NCBI GenBank assembly: GCA_037142615.1
Contig: JBAXAI010000055.1
Location: forward strand, 1 to 19,734
Length of the DNA stretch: 19,734 nt
Source: Spirochaetales bacterium
GTDB lineage: Bacteria > Spirochaetota > Spirochaetia > JABEVK01
Reading direction: 5' to 3'
The number at the start of each line of letters is the position of its first letter. The first letter of the stretch is position 1. A program made the translations under genes and the position numbers. Below, piece by piece: positions 1-7,996 of the stretch. The notes beneath the pieces are model-generated. The model saw only the letters and a program-made list of their open reading frames with translations, made no database searches and was not told the origin of the DNA.

Positions 1-184
1 TTGCTAGTTTCTCACCCTGGTGAACCGGCGGTAGTTCCCGGGGCTGAAGCTGCAGCTTGTGCACGAGCGGAAGCCCGACGGCCTCAAAGTTGGCGTTGAT
101 CAGGCTTTCCAGCAAAGGGAGTCCTTCGGGCTCGCCGAAAACGTGCAGGAAGACGGAATCATGGGTAAGCGGGGAATACGGCAT
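1..184 (-). CDS. Rpn-family PD-(D/E)XK nuclease (putative transposase family), 5' part only; runs off the window edge
   Basis: Manual translation from ATG at 184: MPYSPLTHDSVFLHVFGEPEGLPLLESLINANFEAVGLPLVHKLQLQPRELPPVHQGEKLA, nearly identical to the N-terminus of the 2390-3184 paralog. Confidence 0.85.
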   Translation of the reverse strand, partial: MPYSPLTHDSVFLHVFGEPEGLPLLESLINANFEAVGLPLVHKLQLQPRELPPVHQGEKLA

Positions 185-185
185 A

Positions 186-207
186 TCTTGTACCTCGAGG
201 TACAAGA
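186..207. promoter_or_regulatory. Perfect 22-bp palindrome covering the putative RBS of the Rpn gene
   Basis: tcttgtacctc|gaggtacaaga. Degenerate versions precede the other two Rpn starts (1141-1158, ~3188-3203). Confidence 0.6.
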
Positions 208-267: not shown

Positions 268-347
268 GGGGCGCCTGCCCCTCGCTCCATAAAAAAGGCC
301 GACCCTTGGCGGGCCGACCTTTTGTTATTGCGCTACCCCCTCTGGGT
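268..347. repeat. ~80-bp dispersed repeat, copy 1 (GGGGC/GCCCC mini-hairpin, terminator, Rpn stop region)
   Basis: ggggcgcctgcccctcgctccataaaaaaggccgacccttggcgggccgaccttttgttattgcgctaccccctctgggt recurs at 1190, 2075 and 19596. Confidence 0.95.
291..323 (-). terminator. Intrinsic terminator downstream of the Rpn gene
   Basis: Minus-strand RNA AAAAGGUCGGCCC-GCCAA-GGGUCGGCCUUUUUU: 9-bp stem with two G-U pairs and a U tract, 10 nt after the TAG at 333-335. Confidence 0.8.
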
Positions 348-587
348 GGTCTTCCTCTGGCTTTGGAGTTTCTCCACTTCGGGCAATTGAAGTCCAGTCA
401 GCTCGGCAACTTTGGCAACGCTCATGCCCTCATCGAGGAGCGCGACCGCGACTTCGGCTTTTCCCTTCTCGATGCCACGAACCTCGCCGACGGCCTCGCC
501 CTCGCGGTAGCCCTCGCCCCTGACGCTGACATAGTCATGGTGCTCCATGGACTCGTGGATCTCTCTGTAGACTTCAGGTTCCAGCAT
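333..587 (-). CDS. Putative internally initiated small C-terminal protein (RpnS-like antitoxin), 84 aa
   Basis: GGAGG (596-600, minus strand) lies 8 nt upstream of an in-frame ATG (MLEPEVYREIHESME...). Same arrangement in the paralog. Confidence 0.55.
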   Translation of the reverse strand: MLEPEVYREIHESMEHHDYVSVRGEGYREGEAVGEVRGIEKGKAEVAVALLDEGMSVAKVAELTGLQLPEVEKLQSQRKTTQRG

Positions 588-1138
588 CAGGTACGCCTCC
601 ATCCGTTGCTTTGCGGCGCCGAGCAGAGCAACCAAATCGGCAGGGCCGTTGGCTGGGCTCGTCTCGGGCTTCTCTAGGAATCTGCCCCAAATGGCCGCTT
701 TTTTCAACAGGGAACGGCTGCCCGACGCGCGAAGCAGTTTGGGCAGTTCCACGAAGATGAAACCCAGATGAGCTGTTTGCGGCAGCCGAAAGTGATGCAG
801 CCACGGCCCCTTCCTCGAGATTTCATACTCGAGAAAGTTCAGCGAAATAACCGGCTTCAGGGTCGTATAGTCCTCGCCTTTTGGGAGCTGGCGCGCAAAC
901 AATCGAGCCCAGTAGAACAGGGTGCGTTCGAAGAAGGCGGGCTTGCGGGTGGTCTGCACCTCGACGTTAATCATTCGGCCGGTTTCATCTTCGGCCAGAA
1001 TATCGAGGATGGCCAACTTCTCGCCGTTGTGTTCCGGAGGCAACTCTCGAGGTTGGAGTTGCAGTTTGTGGACGAGCGGAAGGCCTTCCGGCTCTCCAAA
1101 AACGTGCAGGAATCATGGGTAAGCGGGGAATACGGCAT
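333..1138 (-). pseudogene. Rpn-family nuclease, frameshifted near the 5' end; downstream ORF (333-1043) is open
   Basis: ATG at 1138 matches the paralog starts. Versus the 1-184 copy it has a 7-nt deletion (GTCTTCC, ~1110) and a 48-nt deletion (LPLLESLINANFEAVG, ~1080). The LDILAEDETGRMINVEVQ nuclease motif is retained. Confidence 0.8.
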
Positions 1139-2389: not shown

Positions 2390-2578
2390 CTATAGCTTCT
2401 CGACCTCGGCCAAGGGCAGCCCCGTGATCTCGGCAATCTCGCCGGCGGGAACGTGGCGGTCTTTGAGGCGCTGGGCAATTCTGCGCTGTTCCATGCGACT
2501 AGCCTCGGCCTTGACGCTGAAGTAATCCATGCGCTCCATCGACTCGTGGATTTCTCGGTAGACTTCAGGTTCCAGCAT
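2390..2578 (-). CDS. Putative internally initiated small C-terminal protein (RpnS-like antitoxin), 62 aa
   Basis: GGAGG (2587-2591, minus strand) lies 8 nt before the in-frame ATG at 2578. Confidence 0.55.
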   Translation of the reverse strand: MLEPEVYREIHESMERMDYFSVKAEASRMEQRRIAQRLKDRHVPAGEIAEITGLPLAEVEKL

Positions 2579-3184
2579 CAGGTAGGCCTCCATTCGTTTC
2601 TTCGCGACATCAAGCAGTGCCACGAGGTCGGCGGGGCTGCCTGGTTGGTTCGCCTCGGGCTTCTCAAGGAATTTGCCCCAAATGGCGGCTTTTTTCAACA
2701 GGGATCGGTTGCCGGGCGAGCGAAGCAGTTTGGGGAGTTCGACAAAGATGAACCCGAGATGGGAAGTATGCGGCAACCGGAAATGGTGCAGCCACGGACC
2801 CTTCTTGGTGATTTCGTACTCGAGGAAGTTGAGGGAAATAACCGGCTGTAGCTTCGTGTAGTCTTCGCCTTGGGGAAGCTGTCGGGCAAAGAGCCGTGCC
2901 CAGTAGAACAGGGCTCGCTCAAAGTAGGCGGGCTTGCGGGTCGTCTGGACCTCGACATTGACCGTCCGGCCAGTTTCATCTTGGGCTAGGATATCGACGA
3001 TCGCGAGCTTTTCACCGCTGTGGACTGGTGACAACTCACGGGGCTGCAGCTGCAGCTTATGCACCAGCGGCAAGCCAACGGCTTCGAAATTGGCGTTGAT
3101 CAGGCTTTCGAGCAAGGGCAAGCCTTCGGGCTCGCCGAAGACGTGGAGAAAGACGCTGTTGTGCGTCATGGGGGAACTTGGCAT
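2390..3184 (-). CDS. Rpn-family PD-(D/E)XK nuclease (putative transposase family), intact, 264 aa
   Basis: Start reassigned to ATG 3184 by paralog comparison. VDILAQDETGRTVNVEVQ motif, ERALFYWARLF, FIFVELPK and a C-terminal IAEITGL HTH-like tail. Confidence 0.88.
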   Translation of the reverse strand: MPSSPMTHNSVFLHVFGEPEGLPLLESLINANFEAVGLPLVHKLQLQPRELSPVHSGEKLAIVDILAQDETGRTVNVEVQTTRKPAYFERALFYWARLFARQLPQGEDYTKLQPVISLNFLEYEITKKGPWLHHFRLPHTSHLGFIFVELPKLLRSPGNRSLLKKAAIWGKFLEKPEANQPGSPADLVALLDVAKKRMEAYLMLEPEVYREIHESMERMDYFSVKAEASRMEQRRIAQRLKDRHVPAGEIAEITGLPLAEVEKL

Positions 3185-3302
3185 TGGGTACCTCTGCGGT
3201 ACCAGACGGGGGAAAGAGTCGTTCTGCTTCAAAGAGAATACCGAAATCGTGGAAATCTTCCGGTACGGTTCGCCGAGGTCTGTCCAAAGGTGAGGAGAAA
3301 GA

Positions 3303-3435
3303 AACCACCGCCGTCGTTCGCCGGGGCTACCAGAAGACGGTGGTTCCACAAACCGCAAGGTCGACCTTGCGCGAAGCGTGCCGGTTCTGCGACGGATCAG
3401 GTTCCGGTCGCAGGGCTGCCCCCAGACTTCTGGGG
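3303..3435 (-). other. Hairpin-rich segment 3' of TR (candidate DGR spacer RNA)
   Basis: Inverted repeats at 3420-3435 (ccccaga/tctgggg), 3387-3413 (ctgcgac/gtcgcag), 3354-3371 (perfect 18-bp palindrome) and 3303-3345 (aaccaccg/cggtggtt). Confidence 0.55.
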
Positions 3436-4554
3436 CGGGCGAACAACCCGAAAGCCGATGTTGTTGTTCTGGTTGTTCGGGTTGTTGTTGTTCCGGTTGG
3501 ACACGGTCGCGTTGGACGCATTGTTGTTCCAACTGCCGCCGCGTAACACGCGGTTCGAGCCCGAGGCCGCTTCACGCCAGAGTCTAGCACGGAAGGCACC
3601 GCATCGGGCCAACAGGACGGCTGCATTGACGCTGACCGCCCGTTCGGATGCGATGTCTTCGGTTATGGTGCCTTCGCGAAGGTCTTGCTGGATGGCCTGT
3701 GCACGTCGGCGCATACGCTTGCGGGCCTTTTGAAGCAAGTAGATGCCGTCGCGGCGAATCAAGAAGCCCAAGAACGCAAGGCCTTGGCTGCTAGTCCCCA
3801 CCACGGCCGGCTTAAGGGTCAATTTGAGATCGACCAGGGCGAGGGCCTGGACGGCTGCCAAAGCGGCAGTGCGATCTTCGACTGCGTCAAACCACAGTAC
3901 AAAGTCGTCCATGTAGCGTACGTAGGCGCGGGGGCGGATCTGCTCCAGAATGTGATGGTCAAAACCTGATAGGTAGTAGTTGGCGAAAAACTGGCTGGTC
4001 AGGTTGCCAATGGGAAGGCCTTTGCCCGGACAGGTGCCGTAGCTGTCGATCAGCGAATCGAGGAGCAACAGAATCTGGTGGTCTTTGACCAGACGTCGGA
4101 GTAGGGTCTTGAGCACCAAGTGGTCGATGGAGTCGAAATATTTGCGAACATCGAGTTGCAGGTACAGGTTGTGGCCTTTGCCGTTGTGAAAGGCCTGCAT
4201 CACGGCGGCGTGCGTGCCCCGACCCTTGCGACAAGCGTAGCTGTGGTCTACTAGATGGCGCTCAAACAGCGGCTCGAGCACGTTCATCAGGGCATGGTGC
4301 ATCACCCGCTGGTCGAAGTCGGCCGAGCTGATAGTGCGCTGTTTGGGGTCGCTGACGACAAAACTACGATAGTGGCCCCAGTCAGGCTGGCCGCTGGCCA
4401 AGCGCGCACCAACCGCTGCCAGATTGGCGGTCAGTTGACGTGAAAAGAACACCGCCGGTGCGCTGTGCCGCTTGCCGCGAACCGCCTTGAGCCACGCCAG
4501 GCGCAGGTTTTGGTAGTCGACCACAGCATCAAGAAGTCGGCTGGCTCTTTTCAT
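3397..4554 (-). CDS. DGR reverse transcriptase, 385 aa including an in-frame TR-encoded tail
   Basis: Motifs [46 protein letters not shown] (DGR-type SQ), [12 protein letters not shown]. No group II maturase or HNH domain. Confidence 0.96.
3437..3571 (-). repeat. DGR template repeat (TR)
   Basis: 135 bp aligning without gaps to 5139-5273. Holds 36 coding-strand adenines, 30 of them in 15 Asn codons (14 AAC, 1 AAT). Confidence 0.97.
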
Positions 4555-5014
4555 CGACTTGAGGAGAAAGCTGGGCGAAGAACTTCAGAAACTGCTCACC
4601 AAACTGTTTGGTCCGGGCCTCTCCAACGCCGGGGAAGGCGGCGATGTCCTTGAGCGTGGCTGGGATTTTTTTGACCATGGCAGCCAACTGGTCGTTGGTG
4701 AAAACCGAGTACACGGGCACCGAACCTTTCTCGGCCACCGTCTTGCGCAGTTCGCGGAGTTTCTCGAACACGGCAAACTCTTGTTCTGTGAGCACTTCAC
4801 GGTAGTCGGTGCGCGGCTGGTTGGCGGAGGCGCTGCGGGTTTCGGTGCCGTATTCGACCAAGAACAACCAGCCCGTTCCCCGCTCGCCATCGACCAAACG
4901 TTTATCGACGTTGACGATGCGGTGCGAGCGTAAGAACGAATTGAGCTCATCGCACACAGTCGGCTCACCGAACGGGCTGACAAAAAAAGACGCATACTGC
5001 GTCAGCAAAGCCAT
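4529..5014 (-). CDS. HRDC-domain DGR accessory protein, 161 aa
   Basis: ATG 5014 preceded by [37 protein letters not shown]...[15 protein letters not shown] is HRDC-like. 3' end overlaps the RT start by 26 bp. Confidence 0.9.
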
Positions 5015-5055
5015 ACTTCCTCCCTTGGCGCGCTCGCGGGCGCCCGATTCCCTCT

Positions 5056-5103
5056 CTCCGCCGGGCTTCGGCCGCCCTTTGGCGGCACGGCCCGGCTCCG
5101 GAG
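5056..5103. promoter_or_regulatory. GC-rich stem-loop downstream of VR (candidate DGR target-recognition hairpin)
   Basis: gccgcc-cttt-ggcggc (5071-5086) nested inside gccgggc/gcccggc (5060-5066/5090-5096) and ctcc/ggag, 30-80 bp past the target stop codon. Confidence 0.55.
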
Positions 5104-5134: not shown

Positions 5135-7996
5135 TCAGGGGCGAACAACCCGAAAGCCGATGCCGTCGTCCCGGTAGCTCGGGTAGTCGTTGCTCCGGTA
5201 GGACACGGTCGCGACGGACGCACCGTAGTTCCAACTGCCGCCGCGGAACACGCGGTACGAGCCCGAGGCCGCTCCCGTGGGGTCGGTGCTAGGCGATGAG
5301 TCGTAGCTGCCATACCAGTCCCAGTTCCATTCCCAGACGTTGCCGCTCAGGTCGTAGAGTCCCAGCTCGTTGGGTGACTTCTTGCCGACTGGTTGGGTAC
5401 CGGTGGGGCTGTTTTCGTAGGTCCAGGCGAAACTGGCAACGGCGTTGCTCCCGTTGTCGCCTGCGAACGCCTTGTTGTAGCCCCCTGTGTTGACGGCCGC
5501 AACAATATCGCCCGCTTTGGCATCGGTGGCCCCACCCATTGCGGCCCACATCCACTCGGCCTCGGTGGGCAGGCGATAACCGGTCCTGGTCATGTCCATG
5601 GTCACGGTCGCCGACGTGATGGGGTACCCACTAGCTGGGGTGCGGCCGGTGATCGTGTAGACGTCCTGCAGCCCTGCCAGGTCGCTGAGCTTGTTGCAGA
5701 ACTCGACGGCATCGTACCAGGTGACGCTCTCGACAGGGTTCTGGGCTTTGCCACTGGAGGCGCTCGGGCTGCTGCCCGTCACATCGCGGTAGAGGCCCTG
5801 CGTCACCTCGTAGGTCAACATCTGGAAGCTGCTCACCGACACGTTGGCGGTGCCATTGAAGAAGGTTCCACCCGCGACCGGGACGGTCTCAAAGGCGACG
5901 ACAGCGGCCGAGTAGCCCAATGCGTCATTGAAAGCCGCCACAGAGTATTGCGATCCGGCCGCATGATCTAGCCCGTTCGAGCTCGTAATCGCTGTTCCCG
6001 AATCCACGGCGACACCGTTGATGTACACGAAGTACTTCGTCGCTAAAGGCACCGCGTTCCAACTCAAGCTGGCGGTGCTTCCAGTTATAGTCAAGTTTAG
6101 CAACCCCGCCGGAGCCGCCATTGCCGGGAATGTGAAGTCCGCCGCTGTGCTCGTCCCCAGCGCCGTGTTGAACGTCGCCACCCGCAGACCACGCCCCGTC
6201 GGCACAATCACATCAACCAAAGAGGTGGCGGTTGTCGTCGTAACCGCTGTGCCATCGGTGTAGGTCAGCCGGTAGTTCTCGGCAACCGTAACGGCGGTCC
6301 AGCTGACATCCACCTTGCCGTTGCTCTTGGGGGTCAGCGTCAACCCCGCCGGAGCCGCCATTACCGGCACAGTGAACGGCACCTTGGTGCTGAGCCCCAG
6401 TGCGGAATTGAACGCCGCAATCGAAAGACCTCGACCAGCGGGCAACGCAAAGTCGGTCACCAAACTCGCGGTTGTCGTCAGTATCTTGGTGCCATCGTCG
6501 TAGTACAGGTTCACCGATTGGGCCGTGGTCTCGGGGGTCCAGCTCAGGTCAACTTTGCCGTTGCTCTTGGGGGTCAGCACCAAGTTGCCCGGTGCCCGGA
6601 TGCCCGCCGCACCGATGGCGAAGAAGTCCATGTCGTCAACGGCCAAGTAACCCAAGAGCGGAGCGGTGTCGTTTATGTAGAGCCCGGTGGCTGTAAGTGG
6701 ACTGTTGTTGGGCTCGTAGGCTCCCGGTGGTATGTAGGCCGTAAGGTCGGGAGAGTACTGACTGGGACTGCCGATCCAAACCGCGTATTTGGTCTCCGAA
6801 GCGGCCGTGGCCCCGGACAAAGCCAGCGAATATCCGGTGTCCTTCCGTGGCACTACAAGTCCCTGGGAGTTTTGGGGAGGTCCCGGAAAGTGGATCGTCT
6901 TTCGATCTGGGGTGATCAGGGTGGCGTGGCTGGTGTCACCTGCAAGATTCACCGTGAGCTTGTCGTCTTTGTAGAACCGTAGCGTTGTCCGGTCGTGCCA
7001 ACTCGGGCCACCATAGATGTCCAACTGGACGCCCATAGTCACGTCCACATACGCTGTCGTGATCGCAGACACCGTCACTGGGACTGTGATTGTCTGCGTT
7101 GTGCCGGGCTCAAAAGTCGAAAGATTGTTGATCAGGGTTCCGCCCAGAGTTGCCTTGGAGTTGAGTGAACTGAGTGTGTAGGTCGGTGCCATCGATCGGG
7201 CCGAACCCACGTTCTTGATGGTAACGGTGACGTTCTGGGCTGTACCGTCAGCAAAAAGATATGGTACTCCGGCTGGTGCAGCACTGACCTTGAAGTTGTA
7301 CTTCACGGTCGGGTCGGGGATGGTCACGGTGCCCACGTCCTGACCGTCGTCACCGGCCACCACCTCGATCGTTGGGCCGTCTGCGAGGGCGTTCGTCACA
7401 GCGTCGACAATCTTCGGCGTGATTTTGTACACGGCGCCAGCGATGGCGTTGGCGATCTTGTAGCTGCCGTCGATGGCAGTGAACACCGTCTGCATGTCGC
7501 TCGGATTGTCTTTGCTCTGCACCGCGAGCTGCAGGGCCGACATGAAGCTGCGCGGCTCGGCCGAGCGGGCCAGACTCTTGGCCACCACCTGCTGCTCCAC
7601 GGTGCCGTTGAAGGTGGCGCTCCGGTCGGCCTGACGGTACAGGTAAAACGTATCGGTTCCCTGCGTCACCTGAATCATGTCGGCCGAATCGGCGGTCACC
7701 TCGAGGGTGGCACCGGCGGTGGTCAGTTTGGTCACCGTGGCCGAGGTGTAGACATTGCTTCCCATCGGGCTGGTCAACTTGTCGGCGGCCAGATACCAGT
7801 TTTCGACGCGGTCCATTCGCACCCACGGGCCCCAAAGCGACTGGTCGATGGTGACCGCAGCGGGCGTGGTTCCACCGGGGGTTGTCCCACCTGGAGTGCT
7901 TCCGCCACCAGGGTTGACGGTGACCGGCGAGGCGCAGCTGACAAGCGCCAGCAACAAAAAAAGCGCCCCCAAGGGCGCAATCGATGAGATTTTCAT
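5135..7996 (-). CDS. DGR target lipoprotein: lipobox, Ig/FN3-like stalk, C-terminal FGE-sulfatase (CLec-fold) variable domain
   Basis: MKISSIAPLGALFLLLALVS-C signal; PGGxT tether; three ~80-aa AP.xL...LSW repeats; YEVTQ, PVESVTWYDAVEFCN, GYRLPTEAEW, PNELGLYDLSGNVWEW, RGGSW, GFRVVRP. Confidence 0.93.
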   Translation of the reverse strand: MKISSIAPLGALFLLLALVSCASPVTVNPGGGSTPGGTTPGGTTPAAVTIDQSLWGPWVRMDRVENWYLAADKLTSPMGSNVYTSATVTKLTTAGATLEVTADSADMIQVTQGTDTFYLYRQADRSATFNGTVEQQVVAKSLARSAEPRSFMSALQLAVQSKDNPSDMQTVFTAIDGSYKIANAIAGAVYKITPKIVDAVTNALADGPTIEVVAGDDGQDVGTVTIPDPTVKYNFKVSAAPAGVPYLFADGTAQNVTVTIKNVGSARSMAPTYTLSSLNSKATLGGTLINNLSTFEPGTTQTITVPVTVSAITTAYVDVTMGVQLDIYGGPSWHDRTTLRFYKDDKLTVNLAGDTSHATLITPDRKTIHFPGPPQNSQGLVVPRKDTGYSLALSGATAASETKYAVWIGSPSQYSPDLTAYIPPGAYEPNNSPLTATGLYINDTAPLLGYLAVDDMDFFAIGAAGIRAPGNLVLTPKSNGKVDLSWTPETTAQSVNLYYDDGTKILTTTASLVTDFALPAGRGLSIAAFNSALGLSTKVPFTVPVMAAPAGLTLTPKSNGKVDVSWTAVTVAENYRLTYTDGTAVTTTTATSLVDVIVPTGRGLRVATFNTALGTSTAADFTFPAMAAPAGLLNLTITGSTASLSWNAVPLATKYFVYINGVAVDSGTAITSSNGLDHAAGSQYSVAAFNDALGYSAAVVAFETVPVAGGTFFNGTANVSVSSFQMLTYEVTQGLYRDVTGSSPSASSGKAQNPVESVTWYDAVEFCNKLSDLAGLQDVYTITGRTPASGYPITSATVTMDMTRTGYRLPTEAEWMWAAMGGATDAKAGDIVAAVNTGGYNKAFAGDNGSNAVASFAWTYENSPTGTQPVGKKSPNELGLYDLSGNVWEWNWDWYGSYDSSPSTDPTGAASGSYRVFRGGSWNYGASVATVSYRSNDYPSYRDDGIGFRVVRP
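5139..5273 (-). repeat. DGR variable repeat (VR)
   Basis: 18 mismatches to TR, all at TR adenines (11 A>G, 6 A>T, 1 A>C). The 3'-terminal 24 bp are identical (IMH-like region). Confidence 0.97.
6101..6578. repeat. 240-bp-period intragenic repeats (FN3-like modules)
   Basis: caaccccgccggagccgccatt at 6101 and 6341; ttgccgttgctcttgggggtcagc at 6315 and 6555. Confidence 0.85.

Follow-up and report, generated by a model that had tools for sequence, protein, structure and literature searches.

The window, i.e., the whole stretch of 19,734 nucleotides that was analysed, carries a complete HRDC-type DGR on its minus strand, with the gene order target(VR)-HRDC-RT-TR as given by the open reading frame listing and the Pfam matches. 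The cassette and its parts are:

5135..7996, minus strand: DGR target gene, ORF of 953 aa, with PF03781 (FGE-sulfatase/C-lectin-fold) at residues 708-952 (E 1.6e-40)
5139..5273, minus strand: variable repeat (VR), the last 45 target codons, 87% identity to the TR
5061..5095, minus strand: GC-rich hairpin, inner stem GCCGCC, loop AAAG, GGCGGC; DNA fold z only -1.61
4529..5017, minus strand: HRDC accessory gene, 162 aa from the ATG at 5017, with PF00570 at residues 81-145 (E 6e-17)
3397..4554, minus strand: RT ORF, 385 aa, with RVT_1 at residues 71-264 (E 9.5e-18)
4554-3574, minus strand: RT proper, about residues 1-327
RT residues 328-372, minus strand: TR-encoded segment of the RT, followed by a post-TR extension of 12 codons
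3437..3571, minus strand: template repeat (TR), 135 nt, wholly within the RT ORF and in the VR codon phase
3399-3397, minus strand: stop codon (TGA) of the RT ORF, 37 nt (12 codons) past the TR
3301..3436, minus strand: structured 3' flank of the TR, RNA fold z -2.07, with four hairpins in the 135 nt after the TR
3435-3420, 3413-3387 (which holds the RT stop), 3371-3354 and 3347-3301 (long), minus strand: the four TR-flank hairpins

The target stop codon (TGA, 5137-5135) follows right after the VR, and the 3' end of the HRDC gene overlaps the start of the RT by 26 nt. The assignment to the DGRs is based on the adenine-biased TR/VR pair, on the DGR-type RT that adjoins the TR and on the C-terminal VR in an FGE-sulfatase/C-lectin-fold target, and the assignment to the HRDC type on the PF00570 gene that lies in the cassette between target and RT. 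The RT homologs share an invariant P-I-G-N-L-T-S-Q stretch, which fits the DGR RT signature [ILV]GxxxSQ, and the best of these homologs are RTs from loci that bear adenine-biased TR/VR pairs. The 90% cluster of the target protein has a single member.

The DGR is followed immediately downstream by two paralogous PD-(D/E)XK 'transposase' genes (2390-3196 and 333-1043, minus strand), the first of which matches PF12784 PDDEXK_2 (E 7.7e-31), and the start of a third copy is found at the window edge (2-205, minus strand); all copies share near-identical N-terminal peptides. Rpn-like recombination nucleases are one possibility for these genes, and remnants of mobile elements next to the DGR are another. 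An ORF of 380 aa with a TTG start (3532..2390), which overlaps the TR in another frame, was rejected as a gene start, as it is the PDDEXK_2 frame extended upstream and the Pfam domain begins well downstream.

The TR (3571-3437) and the VR (5273-5139) form a direct repeat in which all 18 mismatches are at TR adenines, of which there are 36, and none is found elsewhere in the 135 nt; 17 of the mismatches are on codon positions 1-2 and one is on position 3. Judged from the alignment the homology probably starts 3 nt (one codon) earlier, where GAA of the TR (3574-3572) would pair with GGA of the VR and give a 19th adenine mismatch. The codon phase of the TR within the RT ORF is identical to that of the VR within the target ORF, and there is no stop before or within the TR, which occupies part of the last 58 codons of the RT ORF. 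The first-pass annotation had described an RT ORF (4554..3397) that has no stop before the TR and enters it in the VR frame, and this was confirmed. The same holds for the factual part of its further claim, that the same 135 nt serve as RT coding sequence, as template for retrohoming and as an Asn-rich counterpart of the VR segment. No stop is present in any of the three sense frames of the window TR, so that any abutting ORF would read through it whatever its frame, and the prior for sharing the VR frame, given abutment, is 1 in 3. Of 90 related TRs, 63 are open in the VR frame and 36 and 34 in the other two; in most of those closed in the VR frame the repeat extends beyond the target stop. 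As the ORFs of the RT, HRDC and target are intact and the TR/VR differences are at adenines only, the DGR is, to judge from its sequence, apparently active.

An assembly or sequencing artefact, i.e., a stop lost or a frame shifted near 3575-3600, would be the most trivial explanation for the read-through and had been raised in the first-pass annotation. Logan contigs of run X2, which is from a different study, and of run X3 have 0 differences and no indel across 3250-3558 and 3529/3542-3974, and are thus identical to the window over the junction. Run X4 represents a divergent strain that is roughly 91% identical, with 13-14 differences per 151 nt; these are substitutions only, without any indel, and when they are put into the window the frame is still open and ends at the same stop. 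The nearest database relative of the window RT, P0003, is N-terminally truncated, and its cluster mate P0129 has 385 aa, of which 343/384 are identical to the window RT (89%) in an ungapped alignment, with the same tail and stop. A metatranscriptome contig of 288 nt (run X9) covers 3379-3666 with 0 differences and extends from the 3' part of the RT across the entire TR to beyond the stop, which fits a single RNA with all three, DNA carry-over in the library being possible. The excess contig depth at 3446-3592 stems from 90-95%-alike pieces of other elements or VRs. A sequencing error that removed a stop is excluded by the independent contigs and by the 385-aa homolog, no support for an artefact was found, and the probability left for such an explanation is negligible.

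The RT was modelled with AlphaFold2 (AF2; alignment of 50 rows) at a mean pLDDT of 83.1. In blocks of 10 residues the pLDDT is 81-98 over residues 1-330, except for 69 at residues 101-110, and it is 29-38 over residues 333-385, for which the model has essentially no secondary structure. The tail is predicted to be disordered, with the qualification that a low pLDDT is weak evidence here because few alignment rows cover the tail. RT residues 327-372 give a weak second Pfam match to the C-terminal end of PF03781 (27.2 bits vs a cutoff of 23.3), confined to profile positions 207-255 of 255 (the last 49), while the fold takes up about 245 residues in the target, so that the tail has only the final 45 or so, its last fifth. 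A functional fusion of RT and C-lectin was considered and rejected in view of this partial match, of the pLDDT below 50 over residues 333-385 and of the variable frame and presence of the tail in relatives. The several RT proteins in public databases that have a C-terminal FGE-sulfatase Pfam match are likewise translated TRs and not fusion enzymes, and such a match marks the TR.

The C-termini of related proteins were compared with the RT core alone (residues 1-327, P0001) as query, which kept the tail from influencing the ranking, and those of the 120 best matches were sorted by frame. A full VR-frame tail, ending in ...GFRVVRP, was found in 6 of the best 120 (the window's own protein, P0003, P0004, P0005, P0007, and P0011) and a partial one in a single protein (P0021). 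Entry into the TR in the +1 frame was seen in 50 of the best 120, with 48 ending in ...GERLPALTG and a stop and two reading on (P0068 and P0120), and entry in the +2 frame in 30, where 25 share one short ending and five are long (e.g., P0024, P0112, and P0122); the remaining 33 either extend no more than a few residues past the RT core or were unclassified. The full 385-aa query added the VR-frame proteins P0009, P0016, P0017, P0022, P0025, and P0030, because this query rewarded the tail. In the other VR-frame proteins the extension after the TR ranges from 0, where the ORF ends in ...GFRVVRP and a stop like the target, to about 30 residues, and is of unrelated sequence. On a tree of the RT cores with the tails cut off (FastTree, midpoint root, branch support values uninspected), VR-frame read-through is found in at least seven separate small groups (window with P0003; P0007 with P0009; P0005; P0004; P0025; P0016 with P0017 and P0022; P0011), several of which are nested within clades dominated by another frame. 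P0112, the sister of the window pair on this tree, reads through the TR in the +2 frame.

A census of related loci was made at the DNA level. With a single RT protein as query no relative was found among the genome contigs, and an alignment was used as query instead, which gave 79 loci from genome contigs and 79 from metagenome contigs. The RTs of the fetched loci are 35-56% identical to the window RT, and their sources are Treponema and other Spirochaetota, Saprospiraceae and other Bacteroidota, Planctomycetota and others. A TR/VR pair had to be ungapped with at least 80% adenine mismatches, and the VR frame was taken from the codon position of the mismatches; it disagrees with the ORF-based frame in five loci only, and in four of these the VR is cut by the contig end. 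The TR ends are the ends of the blastn alignments, so that errors of a few nt are to be expected. A qualifying pair is present in 89 of the 160 loci with an RT match, and no pair was found in 71, many of which are short contigs, and 87 loci were counted after the window and a duplicate (L090) had been dropped. Accessory ORFs between VR and RT were found in 80 cases, and 40 of the 43 that were tested contain HRDC; the order VR-HRDC-RT-TR is shared by fetched loci from Spirochaetota, Bacteroidota, Planctomycetota and others.

The TR is located directly 3' of the RT in 80 of the 87 loci, upstream in five and more than 100 nt downstream in two. The abutment of RT and TR is the conserved feature, and the position of the stop and the frame are variable. 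Among the 80 loci the RT stop is found 0-100 nt ahead of the TR in 42, inside the TR in 23 (frames 0/+1/+2 = 1/14/8) and beyond the TR in 7 (frames 0/+1/+2 = 1/2/4), and it straddles the TR start in the other eight (e.g., catAG|GGC and cgtAA|AGG), six of them in the VR frame. The loci with full read-through are L120 in the VR frame, L067 and L089 in the +1 frame, and L026, L046, L080, and L128 in the +2 frame. Only two of the 30 relatives that enter the TR by at least 4 nt do so in the VR frame (binomial P = 0.00065 vs 1/3, which is descriptive only because the loci are related and not independent), and 15 of 17 VR-frame relatives have their stop before or at the TR boundary. Among the HRDC-type homologs there are RTs that stop ahead of the TR, others that stop at its boundary, and others that enter it, in any of the three frames. 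In L015, L017, L047, L058, L032, and L064, all with a VR-frame RT, the stop (TAG/TAA) is exactly on the TR boundary; the last 1-2 bases of these six stops are already within the TR/VR homology, and the spacing between RT and TR is zero.

The same genome (G000) has a second HRDC-type DGR with the same gene order (L163, contig C67, 378-4085), which consists of:

378-2420: target, 680 aa, with the VR at 2268-2412
2523-2972: HRDC
2959-3981: RT, 45% identical to the window RT
3944-4085: TR, forming a TR/VR pair with a 3-nt indel

The census omits gapped TR/VR pairs such as this one. The RT of this second DGR enters its TR in a frame other than that of the VR and stops after 38 nt. A third RT-like ORF, with an open frame of 442 aa and 35-42% identity to parts of the DGR RT, is found on contig C3 of this genome (51080-51985; L003/L004); it may be a group II intron or belong to another RT class.

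The long hairpin in the structured 3' flank of the TR (3347-3301) is GC-rich and followed by a U-rich run, resembles an intrinsic terminator and lies about 50 nt after the RT stop; it is likely the transcript end of the RT-TR unit. By analogy the flank is a candidate counterpart of the non-coding segment that BPP-1 needs downstream of its TR (Handa 2018; PMC6182149). In a fold of 371 nt (3660-3290, z -4.63) a long-range duplex of 11 bp is predicted between 3575-3565 and 3382-3371; its two arms enclose the TR with some 55 nt of the 3' flank, and the 5' arm is made up of the last RT-core codons and the first TR bases. The duplex is reminiscent of Avd-type DGRs, in which duplexes between sequences upstream and downstream of the TR stop reverse transcription (10.1101/2023.10.23.563531). 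Such pairing was looked for in 79 loci of the family with RNAduplex, by pairing 30 nt at the start of the TR with the 160 nt that follow the repeat and comparing each locus with 20 dinucleotide shuffles. At offset -15 the z scores averaged -0.67, at offset 0 they averaged -0.04, and at two control offsets -0.16 and +0.05; z was below -2 in only 6/79 loci, and the Wilcoxon p was 0.007 vs one control. The signal across the 79 loci is too weak for a TR-enclosing duplex to be regarded as conserved in the family. At the other end of the cassette, the GC-rich hairpin at 5061-5095 comes about 45 nt after the VR and target stop. The VR of BPP-1 has a hairpin/cruciform nearby and DGR targets often carry one there, and by this analogy the hairpin is a candidate target-site hairpin. 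No Rfam family was found in the whole window at the gathering threshold.

It is very probable that the read-through tail is an incidental by-product of the compact RT-TR layout. In the HRDC-type family a few codons at most separate the last conserved RT residue from the start of the TR, so that the RT ORF ends at whichever stop comes first. In the lineage of the window the RT frame is the VR frame and there is no stop ahead of the TR, and since a TR is necessarily stop-free in the VR frame the ORF runs through 45 TR codons and 12 more. The outcome is a tail of 57 residues that is probably disordered and non-functional. Among lineages the site of the stop and the frame of TR entry drift, and any RT in the VR frame that is without a boundary stop acquires a tail of at least 45 residues. 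Retrohoming is presumed to be BPP-1-like, i.e., the RT together with HRDC (which would replace Avd) copies the TR RNA and misincorporates at adenines, and the cDNA replaces the VR. We infer that the tail has no function and that the mechanism is as in BPP-1. The first-pass annotation had held a similar reading in reserve, namely that this lineage is simply without a stop before the TR, and the variable frame and stop among the relatives support it. The striking triple use of the 135 nt would be a side effect of the tight packing of RT and TR in HRDC-type DGRs and of little mechanistic import.

It is nevertheless conceivable that the tail or its translation is functional, either through a cis preference of newly made RT for its own mRNA/template or because the transit of ribosomes gates cDNA synthesis. 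The read-through is no fleeting accident, as it is kept together with the same stop in the roughly 91%-identical strain of run X4 and in P0129 (89%), whose RT has diverged by about 11% while the stop stayed in place. Tails in the VR frame have turned up in several lineages, the contig of the X9 metatranscriptome (3379-3666) covers the 3' end of the RT together with TR and stop (with the reservation that it may be carried-over DNA), and a ribosome that reads to 3397 would melt the predicted TR-enclosing duplex. The repeated origin of VR-frame tails implies that they are at least tolerated, and as the TR is constrained as a template, sequence conservation cannot separate selection at the protein level from selection at the RNA level. 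Against a function, neither frame nor stop position is conserved in the family, entry in the VR frame is seen in only 2/30 TR-entering relatives while 15/17 VR-frame relatives stop before or at the boundary, the second DGR of the same genome is without a tail, and the tail itself is predicted to be disordered and comprises about 45 residues of a fold of some 245. Cis-loading or ribosome gating of cDNA synthesis, as proposed in the first-pass annotation, leads to the expectation that frame and read-through are conserved, and among the homologs they are not. A functional tail is therefore considered quite unlikely. A narrower version, in which translation is coupled to the use of the template wherever the RT ORF traverses the TR, so that melting of the duplex gates a switch between mRNA and template or the nascent Asn-rich tail keeps the RT on its own RNA, appears somewhat less likely still. 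If the element were translation-gated, its RNA would reach a fold that is competent for reverse transcription only once translation stops.

The opposite may also be considered, that the read-through is mildly harmful and that the element is heading to decay, because ribosomes on the TR or a destabilised RT lower the activity of the DGR. In-frame entry into the TR indeed looks depleted, and most in-frame relatives keep their stop exactly at the boundary. On the other hand the RT, HRDC and target ORFs are intact in the window, the 18/18 TR/VR differences at adenines are a pattern of recent retrohoming and not of drift, and the same ORF is retained in diverged relatives. A harmful read-through thus seems about as improbable as a functional one, and an incidental by-product of the compact layout remains the preferred explanation for the tail.

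The layout in which RT and TR abut or overlap is already known. Schillinger et al. (2012; DiGReF; PMC3521204) catalogued DGR cassettes with a TR that overlaps the 5' or the 3' end of the RT ORF as 'group 3', and the window, with its TR (3571-3437) entirely within the RT ORF, is similar to these. It differs in that the overlap is total and in the VR frame, whereas the text on group 3 does not say in which frame or how far TR and RT overlap (PMC3521204). In the main-text passages searched, the class of TR/RT overlaps was named only by Schillinger et al. (2012), and nothing on the frame in which TR and RT overlap was found, those of Wu et al. (2018) and of the Roux 2020 preprint included. Wu et al. 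(2018; PMC5758913) describe the RT-TR orders A2 and B2 and an HRDC-containing Architecture C, which is exemplified by a Treponema DGR, and count only 14 HRDC-containing DGRs in 11 layouts. The window resembles Architecture C in having an HRDC gene instead of, or without, avd and a C-lectin-fold/FGE-sulfatase target with a C-terminal VR, and the relatives of its RT, as for Architecture C, are largely from Treponema and other Spirochaetota (PMC5758913).

With the DGR of BPP-1 (avd-TR-spacer-brt; PMC6182149) the window has the adenine-specific transfer from TR to VR in common, and the BPP-1 template needs flanking RNA on both sides of the TR (PMC6182149; 10.1101/2023.10.23.563531). The two differ in the accessory protein, which is Avd in BPP-1 and HRDC in the window, and in the place of the TR, which is upstream of brt and not translated as part of the RT in BPP-1 and 3' of the RT, inside its ORF, in the window. 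The TR has the end of a coding gene as its 5' flank in BPP-1 (avd) as well as in the window (RT). The near-universal abutment of RT and TR (80/87 loci) means that in this family the 5' flank of the template RNA is RT coding sequence, and this is relevant for the reconstitution of HRDC-type DGRs.
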